A stretch of 64,000 nt of DNA from Escherichia coli (GTDB taxonomy: Bacteria > Pseudomonadota > Gammaproteobacteria > Enterobacterales > Enterobacteriaceae), in NCBI RefSeq assembly GCF_003334785.1, contig NZ_QOWV01000007.1; one strand, given 5' to 3'. Both the position numbers and the translations under genes were made by a program. Shown here in pieces: positions 24,677-62,604 of the stretch. The notes beneath the pieces were generated by a model. The model saw nothing but the letters and a program-made list of their open reading frames with translations, had not been told where the DNA came from and made no database searches. Position 1 is the stretch's first letter. Every line of letters starts with the position of its first letter.

Positions 24677-27211
24677 TTAATTACTACCAAACATATCCTT
24701 GATCCAACCGGCTACACCGTCGCTGTCTTTCTGCTCTTGCTGAGCAGGTTGCTGTTGCGGCTGTTGCTGCGGCTGAGAAGACTGATCAAACGGATTGCCT
24801 GACGGCTGCTGCTGCATCTCGCTCTGCTGGCACAGCGATTGCGGATCGCTGGTCCAGACCGGCAAGATACGCATGCCACCGCTGCAAACAAAGTTGCCGT
24901 CGTAGTCCACGCCCATATCTGCAATATCTTCTGGCGGAACAAGATTCAGCGGCGTTGGCGTCTGGTTAGCCAGATAACGCTGATAAATCGACATTGCCCC
25001 GCTGGCACCATACAGTTTGGTCGGCTGGTTGTTATCACGGCCGACCCAGGTGATGGTCACCGTGCTGCCGTCAATGCCCGCAAACCAGGTATCTACGTTA
25101 TTGTTGGTAGTCCCTGTTTTCCCTGCCAGATGCAGGTTCGGGTATTTCGCCCCAAGCTGACGACCCGTACCGCGTTGTACCACCTGCTGCATGGTCCATA
25201 GTGTCAGATACGCCGCCTGCGCCGGAACAGCGCGTTCCGCCTGCGGGAAGCTCTGATACAGCACTTTGCCATCTTCCGCGATTACCGAACGCAGCGCAGA
25301 AAGCGGTGCACGGTTACCACCGCTGGCGATGGTCTGGAATGCCTGCGCCACTTCGATTGGCGTTAAGTTCAACGCCCCCAGCAGCATTGCCGGAACCGGA
25401 TGCAACTGATCTTTCGGTACGCCCAGTTTAATCCAGGTCTCCGTAACCGCAGGCAGCCCCAGCGCCATCCCCAGATTTACCGTCGGCACGTTCATCGAAC
25501 GGGTCAACGCATCCACCAGCATCACTCTGCCGCTTTCGCTATAACGACGGTCATCATTCTGCGGTGACCAGACCTGGCCATTCGGCTGACGCAGCGCAAT
25601 TGGCGCATCCGCAATCCACGTATTCAGACGATAGATTTTCGGCTGGCTTAAGGCCGTCAGATAAGTCGCTGGTTTTGCAAGGGAACCAATCGAACGACGC
25701 GCCTGCATCGCACGGTTGTAGCCCGCAAACTGCGGCTCAGAACCTCCGACCATCGCACGAACTTCACCACTAAAGCGGTCGACGACCACAATCGCAGTTT
25801 CAAGATCGCTCAACTTACGCTGTTTCTTCAGTGCCGGAATGCCTTCCACGGCGGCTTTTTCTGCCGCGTCCTGGGCCACCGAGTCAAAGGTAGTGAAGAT
25901 CTTCACGCCGGAGAGATCTTTTACCTTATCGCCCAGTTTTGCCTGCAGCTCCTGACGCACCAGTTGCATAAAGGCTGGCTGAGGAGAGATCACCCCACCG
26001 CGCGGCTGAACCCCCAGCGGACGGGCACTCAACATGTCATAGAGTTCTTGATCAATAATCTGTTGCTGTTGCAGCAGACGCAGCACCAGATTACGTCGCT
26101 CCAGCGCCAGTTTTGGGTTACGCCACGGGTTGTAGATGGACGCCCCTTTCACCATACCGACTAACAGCGCCTGCTGGTCGAGGCTTAGCTCTTCTACCGG
26201 GCGACCAAAGTAATACAAGCTTGCCAGCGGGAAGCCGCGGATTTCGTTGTCGCCGCTCTGACCGAGATACACCTCGTTCATATACAGCTCAAGAATACGG
26301 TCTTTGCTGTAACGCGCGTCCATGATCAGCGCCATGTAAGCTTCGTTCGCTTTACGCCAGTAAGAACGCTCGCTGGAGAGGAACAGGTTTTTCACCAGCT
26401 GTTGCGTCAGCGTACTCGCACCCTGTACCGTGCGTCCGGCGGTCAGGTTTGCCAGCACCGCACGTCCGATTGAGTAGAGACTGATTCCATCATGCTCGTA
26501 AAAATGACGGTCTTCTGTCGCCAGCAAAGTATCCACCAGCAAATCCGGGAAACCACTGCGCGGCACAAACAGACGCTGCTCACCGTTTGGCGAAGAGATC
26601 ATGGTGATCAGACGCGGATCAAGACGGAAGAAACCGAACTGACGGTTGTTCTCCATATTGACGATCGTCGCCAGATGATCGCCATCAAAGGTCAGACGCG
26701 CGCGCACCTGTCCTTCTTTACTGTCCGGGAAATCAAACGGACGGCGAATCATCTCAATGCTGTTGGCCTGCACGGTAAATTCGCCAGGACGGGTCATTTT
26801 CGACACCTGACGATACTGGGTCGCCTCCAGCAGCTTCACCATCTCGTTCTTGCTGATGGTCATGTCTGGCTCAAGATTGACCATTCGGCCATAAACTGCC
26901 GCAGGCAGTTGCCAGACCTTGCCATCAATACGGCTACGAATTTTTTGATCGAGATAAACGCCGTAAATGGCGATCAGCACGGCAAAAACGATAGCCAGTT
27001 TTAGCAGTAGCCATAGCCAGCCGCGTTTGCCACGAGGCTTACGCCCTTTGCCTTTGCCCTTACCTTTGCGCGGCATCGGTTCTTCATCCTCATAGTCATC
27101 ATAATCGTCGTAATCATCGTCATCTTCGTAACGACGACGGCTTACCTTTTGTTTGACCGGACGCGTCGGTTTCCCTTTGCGTCCAATTGGCTCGCGGTCA
27201 TTCCCGGCCAT
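24677..27211 (-). CDS. mrcB: Penicillin-binding protein 1B (bifunctional transglycosylase/transpeptidase)
   Basis: The known 844-aa protein starts at [14 protein letters not shown] (27211); the ORF track starts 5 codons upstream. Has SxxK-type transpeptidase domain. Confidence 0.96.
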
Positions 27212-53307: not shown

Positions 53308-54858
53308 TTATACCGTAAACCCTAACATCATCCCCGTATCTTCATGCTCCAGCAGATGGCAGTGCGCCATATAAGCATGTTCTTTCGGTGCATCGTGATT
53401 AAACTTCACCAGCACTTCGCTGACATTACCTTCTACCTTAACGGTATCTTTCCAGCCCGCGCGATGAGCCGCTGGCGGTTTGCCATTTTCTGACAAGATA
53501 CGGAACTGCGTGCCGTGGATATGGAACGGATGCAGCATCATGTCGCCCACGCCAGAGATAACCCAACGTTCGTATTGCCCTTTCGCCGCCGCAAACATCG
53601 GCTTGTTCATATCAAACGCCTGACCGTTGATTTTGTTGGCATGGTGGAAATCGAACTTCCCGCCGTGGTTCATATGATTCATATTGCCGTGCCCCATATG
53701 GCCCATCATCTGGCTGTGATCCATCCCGGCCATCGCCTGATCGCCATATTTCTCCATTAGCATCTGCATCCCCATCATATCGAGCATCGGGTCCATAGAG
53801 AGTTGCAGCTTGCGTACCGTCAGCCCTTCCAGCGAAGGTAACGCAGGCAGGCTACTTAATGTGTCTGGCAAAGCACCGGAGGCACTAATAGCAATCGGCT
53901 GAATCCGCATTACCGGATGAGGCTTATCAAACGGCGCAATCGCCATCCCCATCTGGCTGACCGGCAGCGTCACCAGGTCAAAGGGTTTGTTATCGTTAAC
54001 CTCCACCAGCACTTCAAAACGCTCGCCCATCAGCACCGGCAGTTCGCTCACCTTCACTGGTTCAGGTAGCAGACCACCGTCGCTGGCAATCACATACAGC
54101 GGGCGATTGTCGCTGGTGGCGAAATTGAGCGAACGGGCATTACAGCCATTGAGCAAACGCAGGCGCAGCCAACCACGCGGGGCAGCGTGTTGCGGGTAGA
54201 TTGCACCGTTGGTCAGCAACGTATCGCCAAACCAGCCCACGGCGGCGGTCATCACATCCAGTTGATAATCAATCTGCCCGTCGGCGCTAAATTTCTTATC
54301 CTGAACGATCACCGGAACATCATCGATACCCCACTGTTTTGGCAGCATTAATTTCAGGATCTCGTCATCTTCAATCACCACCAGCCCAGCCAGCCCCATC
54401 GCCACCTGTCGCCCGGTTTTGCCGTGCTGATGCGGATGGAACCAGCAGGTAGCGGCAGGTTGATCAACGTTCAACGTCACCGAGCGCTTGCCACCTGGCG
54501 GAATAATTCCCTGCGGGCCGCCGTCGACTTCACCCGGTACTTCCAGCCCGTGCCAGTGCAACGTTGTCTCTTCCGTCAGTTGGTTGTAGATATCAACCGT
54601 TACCGCTTTGCCGCGCTGTAATTTCACCGCCGGCCCCAGCAGATTGCCGTTATAGCCCCAGGTAGTTGCAGTTTTCCCGCCAAAGGTGGACTGGCCTGCG
54701 CCAATAGTTAACTGAATGCGATTACGGGCATCGGTCGTGAGCAAATCAGGGATCGGTAACGTTGGGCGTTCTGCCGCAAATACTGCGCGGCTCCACAGCG
54801 GCAAAGCCGAAGCCACACCCAGCGCGACGGAATATTTTAAGAAATCACGACGTTGCAT
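53308..54858 (-). CDS. cueO: Multicopper oxidase CueO (periplasmic cuprous oxidase)
   Basis: The known 516-aa protein starts at [28 protein letters not shown] (twin-arginine signal); His-rich copper sites ([19 protein letters not shown]) and a Met-rich segment. Confidence 0.96.
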
Positions 54859-55023
54859 AGTTATTTCCTTATTCTTAAGCAGGCGAAACAAAATCAAACG
54901 TTGAGCATAGTCCTTCCCCTTACGGGAAGGTCAAGCCGCAGACACAATTTAATCGACAATAATGGTCGTCGCCTCGCTCGCAGTGTGCTAACGTTTATCT
55001 TCTTTAAGCCCCTGGTAGAAGCA

Positions 55024-57728: not shown

Positions 57729-60326
57729 TTAAACCGCAGTCTGGAAAATCACCCCATCGGCTTTCTCGGTGTACTGAGAAAGCTGGTTGAAGTTCAGATA
57801 ACGGTAAGTATCAACGGCTGTTTTATCTACCTGCGCCACGTAGGTCTGGTACTCTTCCGGCGTCGGCAGTTTGCCAATCAGCGCCGCAACAGCCGCCAGT
57901 TCCGCAGAAGCCAGGAAGACATTCGCGCCAGTACCCAGACGGTTCGGGAAGTTACGGGTAGAGGTGGAAACCACCGTTGCACCGTCCGCCACACGCGCCT
58001 GGTTACCCATACACAGGGAACAGCCAGGGATCTCGATACGCGCACCACTCTTACCGAAGACGCTGTAGTAGCCTTCTTCGGTCAACTGTGCGGCGTCCAT
58101 ACGGGTTGGCGGTGCCACCCACAGGCGGGTCGGCAACTGACCTTTATGCGCATCCAGCAGTTTACCCGCAGCACGGAAGTGACCGATGTTGGTCATGCAG
58201 GAACCGATAAACACTTCGTCGATCTTCTCACCCTGTACCGCAGACAGCGGACGCGCGTCATCCGGGTCGTTCGGAGCACACAGGATTGGCTCTTTAATAT
58301 CCGCCAGATCGATGTCGATCACTGCCGCGTATTCCGCATCTGCATCGGCTTCCAGCAGCTCAGGATTCGCCAGCCATTTTTCCATGCCCTGAATACGACG
58401 TTCCAGGGTACGACGATCGCCGTAACCTTCCGCGATCATCCACTTCAGCAGGACGATGTTAGAGTTCAGGTATTCGATGATCGGTTCTTTGTTCAGCTTG
58501 ATGGTACAACCAGCGGCAGAACGCTCGGCGGACGCATCGGTTAGCTCAAAGGCCTGCTCAACTTTCAGATCCGGCAGACCTTCAATTTCCAGGATGCGGC
58601 CAGAGAAGATGTTTTTCTTGCCTTTCTTCTCAACGGTCAGCAGACCTTGTTTGATCGCATACAGCGGAATAGCGTGTACCAGATCGCGCAGGGTGATGCC
58701 CGGCTGCATTTTGCCTTTGAAGCGCACCAGAACGGATTCCGGCATATCAAGCGGCATTACGCCAGTTGCGGCAGCAAACGCCACCAGACCAGAACCCGCC
58801 GGGAAAGAGATACCGATCGGGAAACGGGTATGGGAGTCACCACCGGTACCGACGGTATCCGGCAGCAGCATACGGTTCAGCCAGGAGTGAATGACGCCGT
58901 CACCCGGACGCAGCGACACACCGCCACGGTTCATAATGAAGTCCGGCAGCGTGTGGTGCGTGTTCACGTCAACTGGCTTCGGATACGCCGCGGTGTGGCA
59001 GAAAGACTGCATCACCAGGTCAGCCGAGAAGCCCAGGCACGCCAGGTCTTTCAGTTCATCACGGGTCATCGGGCCGGTGGTGTCCTGGGAACCTACAGAA
59101 GTCATTTTCGGTTCACAGTACGCGCCCGGACGAATGCCTTTCACGCCACAGGCACGGCCTACCATTTTTTGCGCCAGCGAGAAGCCGCGATCGCTCTCAG
59201 CGACATCTTTCGCCTGACGGAACACATCACTGTGCGGCAGACCAAGTGCTTCACGCGCTTTGGTGGTCAGGCCACGCCCGATAATCAGCGGAATACGGCC
59301 ACCAGCACGCACTTCATCAATCAGCACGTCGGTTTTCAGTTCGAAGGTCGCCAGCAGTTCGCCGGTTTCGTGGTTACGCACTTCACCTTTGTACGGGTAA
59401 ACGTCAATCACGTCGCCCATGTTCAGGTTAGAGACGTCGACTTCGATTGGCAGTGCACCCGCGTCTTCCATCGTGTTAAAGAAGATGGGTGCAATTTTAC
59501 CGCCGAGGCACAAACCACCGCCGCGTTTGTTCGGCACATGTGGAATATCATCGCCCATAAACCACAGAACGGAGTTAGTGGCGGATTTACGCGAAGAACC
59601 CGTACCCACAACGTCACCGACGTACGCCAGCGGGAAACCTTTCTGTTGCAGAGCTTCGATTTGCTTGATCGGACCAACAACACCAGGCTGGTCTGGCTCA
59701 ATACCTTCACGGGCGTTTTTCAGCATCGCCAGCGCGTGCAGTGGGATATCCGGGCGTGACCACGCATCCGGTGCCGGAGAAAGGTCATCGGTGTTAGTTT
59801 CGCCAGTGACTTTGAAGACAGTAACGGTCAGTTTTTCAGCCAGCGCCGGGCGATTCAGGAACCATTCGGCATCCGCCCAGGACTGCATAACCTGCTTCGC
59901 ATATTCGTTGCCTGCTTTCGCTTTCTCTTCTACGTCATAGAAGTTATCGAACATCAGCAGCGTGTGAGAAAGTGCTTTGGCAGCAATAGGTGCCAGTTTG
60001 GCATCATCCAGCGCGTCGATCAGCGGATGAATGTTGTAACCACCCTGCATGGTGCCCAGCAGTTCGATGGCTTTTTCCGGAGTCAGCAGAGGGGATTTGG
60101 CTTCGCCTTTCGCGATAGCAGCCAGGAAGCCTGCTTTGACATAGGCGGCTTCATCGACGCCTGGGGGAACACGGTTGGTTAACAGATCTAACAGGAATTC
60201 TTCTTCGCCCGCGGGCGGGTTTTTCAGCAGCTCTACAAGTGCGGCCATTTGGTTTGCATCCAGGGGTTTGGGCGCAATCCCCTCAGCGGCACGCTCAGCT
60301 ACGTGCTTACGGTATTCTTCTAGCAC
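57729..60326 (-). CDS. acnB: Aconitate hydratase B (bifunctional aconitase / 2-methylisocitrate dehydratase)
   Basis: The ORF track starts at 60479; the known 865-aa protein begins (M)[21 protein letters not shown] at a GTG codon (60326). Confidence 0.96.
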
Positions 60327-60680
60327 GACGGTTCTCCTCGCTCTCATTGTCATAGTGCGGCAGGCGATTCTCTTCACGCTCCTGTGAGACAGCAGTTTGT
60401 AGGGTAAATGCCCAGTACCGCAACGGGCAGAATAGCAGGATTTTGACGAGGTGTTAATCTGTTTACAAAAAAGCAACATAAAAAAGTGGCTGAATCGTTA
60501 AGGATGGTCTAGAGATTGTTTCCCTCCGTAAAAACTTCGTTAATTCGCATGGTGATAATCACCTTTCTCAACGAATCCCAAGATTAGTCAAAATTTAAAC
60601 TACCGCCTCTTTATACTCGGATTCACAGCACCTGCGGGTGGCAGTTCGCCGACCATTGCGATTTCCTTGAGATCCGAATT

Positions 60681-62534
60681 ATGAAAATGACTTTGCCGTT
60701 TAAACCCCATGTGCTGGCGCTAATTTGCAGTGCCGGGCTTTGTGCCGCCTCTACCGGGCTATATATAAAAAGCCGCACAGTGGAAGCGCCTGTGGAACCG
60801 CAATCGACACAACTGGCTGTGTCTGACGCTGCCGCGGTTACGTTTCCTGCAACGGTTTCCGCACCTCCCGTAACACCCGCCGTCGTCAAATCCGCATTCA
60901 GCACTGCACAAATAGATCAATGGGTCGCGCCCGTCGCGCTGTATCCCGACGCCCTACTTTCGCAGGTGCTGATGGCATCAACCTATCCGACAAACGTTGC
61001 TCAAGCAGTGCAATGGTCGCACGATAATCCACTTAAACAAGGCGATGCTGCTATTCAGGCGGTATCTGACCAGCCGTGGGACGCCAGCGTTAAATCACTG
61101 GTGGCCTTTCCACAATTGATGGCATTGATGGGCGAAAACCCGCAATGGGTGCAAAACCTGGGCGATGCTTTTCTGGCCCAGCCGCAGGACGTGATGGACT
61201 CGGTACAGCGATTGCGGCAACTGGCGCAACAAACCGGCTCGCTGAAGTCATCAACCGAACAGAAAGTTATTACCACAACGAAGAAAGCTGTACCGGTAAA
61301 ACAGACAGTCACGGCACCCGTCATACCATCCAATACAGTTTTAACTGCCAACCCCGTCATTACAGAGCCGGCAACAACCGTCATTTCCATTGAGCCCGCC
61401 AATCCTGATGTGGTCTATATTCCCAACTACAACCCAACCGTGGTTTACGGGAACTGGGCCAATACTGCGTATCCGCCGGTTTATCTGCCACCACCAGCCG
61501 GAGAACCGTTTGTTGACAGCTTTGTACGCGGATTCGGCTATAGCATGGGCGTTGCTACCACGTACGCACTATTCAGCAGCATCGACTGGGACGACGACGA
61601 TCATGACCATCATCATCATGACAATGATGATTATCATCACCACGATGGCGGTCATCGTGACGGTAATGGCTGGCAACACAACGGCGACAACATCAATATC
61701 GACGTCAACAATTTCAACCGTATCACCGGTGAGCATCTTACTGATAAGAATATGGCATGGCGGCACAATCCAAACTACCGTAATGGTGTGCCCTATCATG
61801 ATCAGGATATGGCAAAGCGGTTTCATCAAACCGATGTCAACGGCGGAATGAGCGCCACGCAATTACCTGCCCCAACGCGCGACAGCCAGCGTCAGGCGGC
61901 AGCAAATCAGTTTCAGCAACGAACACACGCCGCACCAGTCATTACACGAGATACCCAACGTCAGGCAGCGGCACAGCGGTTTAATGAAGCTGAACACTAT
62001 GGGAGCTATGACGACTTCCACGACTTCAGCCGTCGCCAACCACTGACCCAGCAACAAAAGGACGCCGCTCGTCAGCGTTATCAGTCCGCCTCGCCTGAGC
62101 AGCGCCAGGCAGTTCGCGAGAGAATGCAGACTAACCCGAAGATCCAGCAGCGAAGAGAGGCAGCGCGTGAGCGCATTCAGTCCGCCTCGCCTGAGCAGCG
62201 CCAGGCGGTTCGCGAGAAAATGCAGACTAACCCGCAGAACCAGCAGCGAAGAGACGCAGCGCGTGAGCGTATTCAGTCCGCATCACCAGAGCAGCGCCAG
62301 GTGTTTAAGGAAAAAGTACAGCAGCGCCCACTGAATCAACAGCAACGTGATAACGCCCGCCAGCGTGTTCAATCGGCATCACCTGAACAACGTCAGGTTT
62401 TTCGGGAGAAAGTTCAGGAGAGCCGCCCACAACGTCTAAACGACAGTAACCATACTGTCAGGCTGAATAACGAGCAACGGTCAGCAGTATGCGAACGTCT
62501 CTCTGAACGTGGAGCAAGAAGACTGGAAAGGTAA
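60681..62534 (+). CDS. yacH: Uncharacterised secreted repeat protein (DUF3300-like)
   Basis: 617-aa ORF with signal peptide (MKMTLPFKPHVLALICSAGLCAAS), a His/Asp-rich tract, and C-terminal tandem repeats of about 32-33 aa. Confidence 0.9.
   Translation: MKMTLPFKPHVLALICSAGLCAASTGLYIKSRTVEAPVEPQSTQLAVSDAAAVTFPATVSAPPVTPAVVKSAFSTAQIDQWVAPVALYPDALLSQVLMASTYPTNVAQAVQWSHDNPLKQGDAAIQAVSDQPWDASVKSLVAFPQLMALMGENPQWVQNLGDAFLAQPQDVMDSVQRLRQLAQQTGSLKSSTEQKVITTTKKAVPVKQTVTAPVIPSNTVLTANPVITEPATTVISIEPANPDVVYIPNYNPTVVYGNWANTAYPPVYLPPPAGEPFVDSFVRGFGYSMGVATTYALFSSIDWDDDDHDHHHHDNDDYHHHDGGHRDGNGWQHNGDNINIDVNNFNRITGEHLTDKNMAWRHNPNYRNGVPYHDQDMAKRFHQTDVNGGMSATQLPAPTRDSQRQAAANQFQQRTHAAPVITRDTQRQAAAQRFNEAEHYGSYDDFHDFSRRQPLTQQQKDAARQRYQSASPEQRQAVRERMQTNPKIQQRREAARERIQSASPEQRQAVREKMQTNPQNQQRRDAARERIQSASPEQRQVFKEKVQQRPLNQQQRDNARQRVQSASPEQRQVFREKVQESRPQRLNDSNHTVRLNNEQRSAVCERLSERGARRLER
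62061..62446 (+). repeat. Intragenic tandem repeats in yacH (about 4 units of 96-99 bp)
   Basis: Units 1 and 2 are near-identical at DNA level (tcagtccgcctcgcctgagcagcgccaggc[a/g]gttcgcgaga[g/a]aatgcagactaacccg); units 3 and 4 are diverged. Each encodes AARERIQSASPEQRQAVREKMQTNP-QQRR-like segments. Confidence 0.85.
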
Positions 62535-62544
62535 ATTGCAGACG

Positions 62545-62576
62545 TAAAAAAAGCGGCGTGGTTAGCCGCTTTTTTA
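62545..62576. terminator. Bidirectional Rho-independent terminator between convergent yacH and lpdA
   Basis: A-run, stem agcggc-gtggtt-agccgct, then T-run (aaaaaaagcggcgtggttagccgcttttttaa); readable as a terminator on both strands. Confidence 0.8.
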
Positions 62577-62604
62577 ATTGCCGGATGTTCCGGCAAACGA
62601 AAAA

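Follow-up and report, generated by a model that had tools for sequence, protein, structure and literature searches.

A histidine/aspartate-rich loop of variable length in YacH, an Enterobacterales member of the DUF3300 family, and its possible role in metal or proton binding

We analyzed a 64,000-nucleotide stretch of Escherichia coli DNA (NCBI RefSeq assembly GCF_003334785.1, contig NZ_QOWV01000007.1; hereafter 'the window'), in which the gene yacH encodes a DUF3300 family protein containing the dense His/Asp tract DDDDHDHHHHDNDDYHHHDGGHRD. Comparison with the family showed that this tract is an Enterobacterales-specific accessory loop, which arose by expansion of a three-residue G-H/R-x turn between W303 and the N-I-N-I-D-V-N strand. 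The loop varies greatly in length and sequence among orthologues, and the pattern of its codons points to selection on its composition. An earlier note on this DNA had suggested that the tract binds divalent metals in the periplasm or senses pH; we tentatively favor a related reading.

The tract is an expansion of a conserved turn

The tract, its sequence and the name of the gene proved to be as the earlier note had given them when the window was read and translated; the end that it had placed at 61670, rather than at 61661, takes in the next three codons (GNG) and nothing more. Its 24 codons, read in the frame set by the ATG at 60681, are gac gac gac gat cat gac cat cat cat cat gac aat gat gat tat cat cac cac gat ggc ggt cat cgt gac. 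Nine His and ten Asp thus make up 19 of the 24 residues. The binomial probability of such a run is ~1e-17 to 1e-18 per position (~1e-18 given a background of 6.6% His+Asp, which is the value for the rest of YacH), and therefore a chance origin is excluded. In none of the six frames of the window does another 24-residue stretch reach a comparable density of His+Asp. Next after the tract in acidity, in the scan of all six frames, comes an Asp/Tyr/Glu run without His at ~27100..27151 on the minus strand; it presumably resembles the N-terminal region of PBP1b (mrcB).

Relatives of YacH were searched among 1.84 billion cluster representatives, of which 9583 matched at E<=1e-3; approximately 100 full-length DUF3300 representatives were aligned, and linker lengths were counted over 106. 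The family consensus near the site is GFGVGVA...ALWGxC[DN]W-G-[HR]-x-[DN][VI]N[IV]NVNR[YF]NN, with WxHxPxHRxGVPYRD later, and the Trp that matches W303 is nearly invariant across the aligned proteins. The linker from this Trp to N-I-N is exactly three residues in 93 of the 106 representatives, usually G-H/R-x (38% Gly, 22% His and 16% Arg), versus 33 residues in YacH. His/Asp linkers of 22-33 residues occur only in YacH and six Enterobacterales-like representatives, which include Scandinavium, Rahnella and a Citrobacter/Enterobacter-like cluster. Two of the long-linker representatives are from metagenome clusters, and the tract of one of these two, P0124, is that of Hafnia alvei. The Bordetella member has only W-G-R-G-S-V-N-I-N-V-N at this site.

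A few distant DUF3300 members are His-rich in a different way (e.g., DWHHHHVHVHVDH), with His in place of the Asn/Asp of the strand. This is the case in P0261, P0186 and P0259, in which the Asn/Asp positions of N-I-N-V-N-V-N are taken by His (H-V-H-V-H-V-D). The polar face of the strand therefore seems to take only Asn, Asp or His, which hints at a ligand- or ladder-forming surface beside the loop.

An AlphaFold2 model computed from a 107-sequence alignment had a mean predicted local distance difference test score (pLDDT) of 73 for YacH, with values above 90 at residues 70-205, ~232-310 and ~340-385. Over residues 311-330, by comparison, the block means were 51 and 45, and the segments 311-313 and 319-334 were below 50; the score returns to ~90 after the insertion, at the strand motif. 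The model thus predicts that the tract is disordered and loops out of a well-defined core. No solved structure similar to the YacH fold was found in the structure search, and the Foldseek hits in AFDB50 were all DUF3300 proteins. Because the loop is absent from most DUF3300 proteins, it is accessory and not the core of the protein's function.

Length, sequence and composition of the tract

All 120 of the closest protein clusters, which are all from E. coli or Shigella, contain the tract, as do six further Escherichia loci (L001-L005 and L007). Among these 120 clusters, the tract occurs in more than 20 variants of 16-38 residues. The E. coli variants differ in their His runs (HHH versus HHHH or HHHHHH), in their Asp runs (DDD, DDDD or DNDD) and in the presence of one or two extra seven-residue D[DN]DDYHH units. 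Comparison of the alleles showed that length changes rapidly, by in-frame gains and losses of GAY/CAY codons and of a 21-nt unit. The tract is the main insertion/deletion (indel) hotspot among the closest E. coli alleles, and up to nine different tracts were found on proteins identical over the remaining ~590 residues. Judging from these otherwise identical proteins, the tract mutates much faster than the rest of yacH, by in-frame indels.

Variation at this site has also inactivated the gene. In Salmonella Typhimurium, yacH (STM0157) is a pseudogene in strains 14028s, UK-1, SL1344 and D23580 owing to an 8-bp deletion, described as 850_857delGATCATCA (GATCATCA), Asp284fs, within 'gac gat cat cac' (PMC10048834, PMC3391293). 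We found that this deletion falls inside the equivalent His/Asp tract. For this reason, the tract is to be regarded as a recurrent site of gene inactivation.

Patterns such as DHDHHHHD are common, and a scan of contigs for tract loci found at least 12. Taxonomic breadth was taken from a second protein search, with the Rahnella orthologue as the query. A His/Asp tract of 10-40 residues was present in 11 Enterobacteriaceae loci, among the matches listed, and in 119 clusters from the Rahnella-seeded search. These amount to ~130 orthologue sequences outside Escherichia from about 20 genera, all with the tract; the genera include Salmonella (enterica and bongori), Citrobacter, Klebsiella, Raoultella, Enterobacter, Leclercia, Kluyvera, Buttiauxella, Pseudocitrobacter, Atlantibacter, Franconibacter, Hafnia and Rahnella. 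The 91 tracts that could be extracted by pattern have at least three His each and comprise 75 distinct sequences, and 15 others are similar by eye. Across genera, the same order of blocks recurs: poly-D, a His run, a D run, Tyr, a His run and a Gly-rich end.

Next, we examined the composition of the tract. Pooled over the 91 orthologue tracts, the residues are D 762, H 602, G 311, N 168, Y 159, Q 38, R 35, S 28, W 21, E 3 and K 0. The tract codons of 17 loci include 349 NAY and 8 NAR, and all 8 NAR are the CAA of the conserved WQHNG end. The third positions of the NAY codons (C 157, T 192) are mixed both within and between genera. In NAY codons, third-position transitions are silent, and transversions give Glu, Gln, Lys or a stop. 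Since silent third-position changes have accumulated, slippage is not simply homogenizing the tract. Moreover, because silent changes pile up while D-to-E, H-to-Q and N-to-K changes do not, the codons point to purifying selection on the His/Asp composition, with the exact sequence and length left free. The earlier note had proposed that conservation of the His tract among orthologues be checked, and the answer is divided. None of the Enterobacterales orthologues examined lacks the tract, and its composition appears to be under purifying selection, but both its length (10-40 residues) and its sequence differ widely from protein to protein, also among those of E. coli.

Possible function of the loop

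The cellular location of the tract bears on any role that it may have. Residues 11-29 form the only 19-residue window of YacH with a Kyte-Doolittle value above 1.6 (1.91), and AlphaFold2 places a helix at residues 9-30. A heuristic, rather than a trained predictor, found a hydrophobic segment and then small-x-small at the N-terminus of 86 of 91 full-length DUF3300 representatives. Many of these N-termini are textbook Sec signals (e.g., ...LLLAAHPAAAQ), and one has a lipobox. These results bear out the view of the earlier note that YacH is a signal-bearing protein. The proteins of the enterobacterial clade have a long hydrophobic stretch with Lys and Arg after it, so that the N-terminus of YacH may be an uncleaved anchor. 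Because there is a single N-terminal hydrophobic segment in YacH and signal-like N-termini throughout the family, the tract-bearing part is most likely periplasmic. We also considered whether the Gly-rich hydrophobic segment ahead of the tract (GFGYSMGVATTYALFSSI) spans the membrane as a second helix, in which case the tract would be cytoplasmic. This was rejected, since the hydropathy of the segment is far under the threshold; it is outside the top five hydrophobic 19-residue windows (the lowest listed is 0.86, versus 1.91 at the N-terminus), and AlphaFold2 models it in a compact, high-confidence, non-helical region.

Clustered His and Asp chelate Zn, Ni and Cu, and His titrates at ~pH 6-7. 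The reading that we favor, to which we give almost an even chance, is that the loop acts through this chemistry, by reversible coordination of divalent metals together with an inseparable titration of protons. The loop would reversibly coordinate Zn2+, Ni2+ or Cu2+ in the periplasm at several sites of low to moderate affinity; with its 9-10 His interspersed with 10 Asp, it would also titrate protons at a pH near neutral. Binding of metal or protons would shift the charge and compaction of the loop and in this way modulate the adjacent conserved core or its contacts. The loop would then be comparable to the variable His-rich loops of periplasmic zinc-binding proteins, and would be a site of neither catalytic nor structural importance. 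At the level of sequence, metal binding and pH sensing would look alike, and they are treated here as one. The apparent selection on composition favors a function that depends on His/Asp chemistry and strengthens this reading. In addition, the turn into which the loop was inserted is, in its short form of three residues, already 22% His.

Several observations weigh against metal or proton binding. Shortening of the tract is tolerated, as seen in E. coli C012 (DDDDHDHHHRD, 11 residues) and in one Salmonella cluster (10 residues). The 93 of 106 representatives without the expansion indicate that the tract is dispensable for the family. Slippage copies existing codons and could by itself help to keep the composition, which makes the evidence for selection a qualitative one. 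The Pfam and NCBIfam scans of YacH detected no metal-binding domain, and there is no metal-handling gene as a conserved neighbor of yacH among the loci examined. A literature search with yacH and metal terms found no paper that links yacH to any metal, and no support for a specific metal (Ni, Zn or Cu), for metal-responsive regulation or for a metal phenotype of yacH. The reported responses of yacH are instead those of envelope stress, namely to CpxR, ampicillin, cathelicidin, cecropin/protamine and Rob.

The tract could also be a functionless low-complexity expansion, a slippage-prone NAY run that merely persists in a tolerant surface turn, with its composition kept by codon copying and by the harm of hydrophobic or stop changes instead of by any role of His and Asp. 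Several of the above results would be expected in this case: lengths of 11-38 residues within one species, the indel hotspot with up to nine tracts on otherwise identical proteins, the pseudogene-making deletion inside the tract of S. Typhimurium and the absence of the tract from most DUF3300 proteins. The gene itself is sometimes disrupted or deleted (by IS1 in genome H1, and with 5% coverage in genome H30; see below). However, the tract is kept in every Enterobacterales orthologue examined, although the proteins are only 40-60% identical across genera. Third positions are mixed, yet there are 3 Glu versus 762 Asp, and Gln and Lys are excluded; furthermore, the block order recurs across genera. 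We therefore regard a functionless tract as unlikely, while allowing it a real chance.

Another explanation is electrostatic and needs no metal site. An acidic, pH-titratable loop might dock on the basic C-terminal repeats of YacH or capture cationic antimicrobial peptides, so that the pH or peptide load of the envelope switches YacH between states. The charges are suitable, with 10 acidic residues versus one Arg in the tract, and an isoelectric point (pI) of 11.3 with 44 Lys+Arg in residues 401-617. The published responses of yacH also agree with this idea. A yacH deletion mutant survives protamine better, and protamine lowers yacH mRNA; yacH is CpxR-regulated, and its repression by cecropin A is cited in the same paper from earlier work (PMC9600279). 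In other papers, the yacH promoter is induced by ampicillin, the transcript is induced by cathelicidin, and dependence on Rob is described. On the other hand, a pure charge role would require neither the strong bias of Asp over Glu nor the constant His, and the basic C-terminal repeats are very different between genera while the tract persists. We consider this explanation improbable overall.

A place for YacH in a copper system with the nearby multicopper oxidase CueO has next to nothing to recommend it. The earlier note had put cueO at ~7 kb and had read no functional link from the sequence; the distance is 6.7 kb, and its caution is upheld by five unrelated genes in between. Apart from this proximity, a paper on recombinant protein yield happened to combine deletions of yacH and cueR. 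The intervening genes speE, speD, yacL and acnB and the yacC region lie on mixed strands, the conserved neighbors are acnB and lpdA (DUF2950 outside Escherichia), and the literature searched contains no CueR or copper data. The link was rejected on gene order and synteny.

Metal and proton binding by the loop could be taken one step further. The loop would be a metal- or pH-operated periplasmic switch that Enterobacterales added to the DUF3300 scaffold, coupling the cation or acid status of the envelope to cationic-peptide susceptibility and Cpx-linked stress, with slippage-driven length as a heritable tuning knob. We put this forward as a speculation that is more probably wrong than right by a wide measure.

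The yacH gene and its surroundings

The features of yacH in the window are listed in Table 1. The open reading frame (ORF) is 100% identical to 'yacH: DUF3300 domain-containing protein' in many complete E. coli genomes, and a match, at any coverage, was present in all of the 5426 complete E. coli genomes searched. The Pfam DUF3300 model (PF11737) matches with an E-value of 1.5e-78 over model positions 2-227 of 227; neither YacH nor the DUF2950 partner described below is represented by a model in NCBIfam. The gene is under purifying selection, with ratios of non-synonymous to synonymous substitution (dN/dS) of 0.12-0.19 for the whole gene and 0.01-0.05 in the two core subdomains.

Table 1. Features of yacH and of overlapping reading frames in the window
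Feature	Position	Strand	Residues and basis
yacH coding sequence, DUF3300 family protein, 617 aa	60681..62534	+	ORF list; 100% identity to annotated yacH
N-terminal export signal	60681..60770	+	Residues 1-30; K2 and K8, then hydrophobic VLALICSAGLCAASTGLYI; cleavable signal peptide or signal anchor
Pfam DUF3300 match	60903..61679	+	Residues 75-333: helical subdomain 75-184, Pro/Thr/Val-rich linker, start of second, mostly non-helical subdomain
His/Asp tract DDDDHDHHHHDNDDYHHHDGGHRD	61590..61661	+	Residues 304-327; predicted disordered loop (AlphaFold2)
Whole lineage-specific insertion, tract and GNGWQHNGD	61590..61688	+	Residues 304-336; replaces the three-residue G-H/R-x turn (family alignment)
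Strand motif NINIDVNNFNR	61689..61721	+	Directly after the insertion; family consensus [DN]-[VI]-N-[IV]-N-V-N-R-[YF]-N-N; strand 338-340
Four copies of 32-aa basic helical repeat (..RDAARERIQSASPEQRQAVREKMQTNPQNQQR..)	62049..62420	+	Motif positions 469, 501, 533 and 565
Other-frame ORF over the tract, 153 aa (...TTTIMTIIIMTMMIIITT...), not a gene	61390..61851	+	ORF list
Antisense ORF over the tract, 97 aa, not a gene	61569..61862	-	ORF list; comparable antisense ORFs over acnB and lpdA

The C-terminal part of YacH also varies in length. The youngest copies of its 32-residue repeat form a 96-nt tandem repeat at 62081..62301 (Tandem Repeats Finder (TRF): period 96, 2.3 copies, 92% match), the copy number of which differs among E. 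coli strains, and the 1758-nt alleles are one unit short. AlphaFold2 places helices at residues 457-546, with block-mean pLDDT values mostly of 73-88. Approximately half of the 5426 E. coli genomes fall in the 90-95% identity band, which includes the shorter (1758-nt) alleles, and the 662-residue alleles have a further 45-residue duplication near residue 416.

The E. coli alleles of yacH are unusually divergent for a core gene, with nucleotide identity down to ~90%. Between the window and L001-L005, dS reaches 0.29 for the whole gene and, in the Pro/Thr/Val-rich linker (residues 201-240), 0.79, while the protein sequences encoded by the acnB and lpdA fragments on either side are 99-100% identical. 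This divergence suggests old allelic lineages or recombination. In ~1% of the complete E. coli genomes, there is no single-place match that covers >=80% of yacH. For example, yacH is split by IS1A in SW071611 (H1, NZ_CM129855.1 4295808..4298438), in which the match spans 2631 nt versus 1854, and only 5% of the gene is left in AST85 (H30).

The gene order in the window, as confirmed by NCBIfam, is cueO (53308..54897, -), speE, speD, yacL, acnB (57729..60326, -), yacH and lpdA (62605.., -), and acnB and lpdA are the conserved neighbors of yacH. A DUF2950 gene (Pfam PF11453; E-value 2e-105 for the Bordetella copy) lies directly downstream of the DUF3300 gene in 10 of the 10 loci outside Escherichia (L008-L017), which are from Atlantibacter, Franconibacter, Enterobacter, Kluyvera, three other Enterobacteriaceae and Bordetella; examples are L008:5645-6490, L014:5469-6350 and L017:5437-6339. 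No such gene follows yacH in the window (62535..62604) or in the E. coli and E. albertii loci L001-L007, as far as this locus is concerned. Because DUF2950 adjoins every copy examined outside Escherichia and none at the Escherichia locus, the yacH of Escherichia is, on this gene order, apparently an orphan of a conserved DUF3300-DUF2950 two-gene unit.

The earlier note had also attributed long spurious ORFs in other frames to the codon repetition of the tract. Such ORFs do exist (Table 1), but this point is trivial, since only 24 of their codons come from the tract and acnB and lpdA are overlapped by antisense ORFs of a similar kind. The frameshifted public yacH entries P0122 and P0148 continue through the tract in the +1 frame (...TTTIMTIIIMTMMIIITTMAVIVTVMAG...). 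As this frame has no stop for 153 codons, it gives rise to spurious 'proteins' and separate clusters.

Two features of the flanking regions were also seen. Between the convergent yacH and lpdA, we found by eye a hairpin, AAAAAAA-GCGGC-GTGGTTA-GCCGC-TTTTTT, at 62546..62575. It looks like a bidirectional intrinsic terminator, and the consensus scan did not list it. Upstream of yacH, there is a weak CpxR-box-like site at 60612..60626 on the minus strand (GTGAATCCGAGTATA), with two mismatches to GTAAA-N5-GTAAA, 55-70 nt from the start. It was the only candidate in the search upstream of yacH, and 70 such two-mismatch sites occur in the window versus ~51 expected, so that it is uninformative.

Implications

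YacH is one of the E. coli proteins that still lack an assigned function, and its family, DUF3300, is very large (9583 representative clusters) and has neither a solved structure nor a known role. Within YacH, only the loop has a chemistry that invites a direct experiment, and the apparent selection on its composition makes such an experiment worthwhile. If the reading of the loop as a switch were true, it would open a first way to the function of DUF3300. The tract also causes trouble in practice. As an indel hotspot, it gives rise to many variants in protein length, to gene calls with frameshifts and to a Salmonella pseudogene that recurs, and it therefore deserves attention in annotation and in the clustering of pan-genomes. 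The feature is familiar in kind, as His-rich variable loops and coding repeats are already known. What goes beyond the earlier note is the recognition of a clade-specific expansion of a conserved turn, of an indel hotspot and of selection on composition.

Comparison with known systems

YacH shares with the widespread exported proteobacterial family DUF3300 (PF11737) its export signal, helical domain, P-rich YVPxYNPxVVYGxW segment, invariant Trp, N-I-N-V-N strand, WxHxPxHRxGVPY motif and basic low-complexity tail. It differs from a typical member in having the 33-residue His/Asp insertion in place of the three-residue turn. The Escherichia protein differs further from typical members, those of other Enterobacteriaceae included, in that it has no DUF2950 gene at its locus and carries extra 32-residue C-terminal repeats.

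The LTxxQ proteins CpxP, Spy and ZraP are, like YacH, periplasmic, helical and Cpx-linked, with a repeated x-P-E-Q-x-Q motif. We considered whether the SPEQRQ repeats of YacH are an LTxxQ domain and rejected this, as the Pfam scan of the whole protein gives only DUF3300 up to an independent E-value of 10; the likeness is that of a short motif.

The coding simple-sequence repeats of envelope proteins resemble YacH in their fast in-frame length change (here in a trinucleotide-type tract and a 96-nt repeat) and in occasional out-of-frame inactivation. Unlike them, the YacH tract is not a pure repeat, as TRF calls none there, and its composition is constrained. A reversible on/off frameshift switch was not seen at the tract, where variation is in whole codons and the only frameshift is the fixed 8-bp deletion in S. 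Typhimurium lineages.

His-rich flexible segments are well known in metal-binding proteins. ZnuA is a periplasmic zinc-binding protein with a His-rich flexible loop, and SlyD, HypB and Hpn are known for His-rich tails or as His-rich proteins. We found no homology between YacH and a known metal-binding fold. By analogy, however, the YacH loop would be like the segments of these proteins in being dense in His and acidic residues, predicted to be disordered, variable in length among species and borne on a folded domain, and ZnuA is likewise periplasmic.

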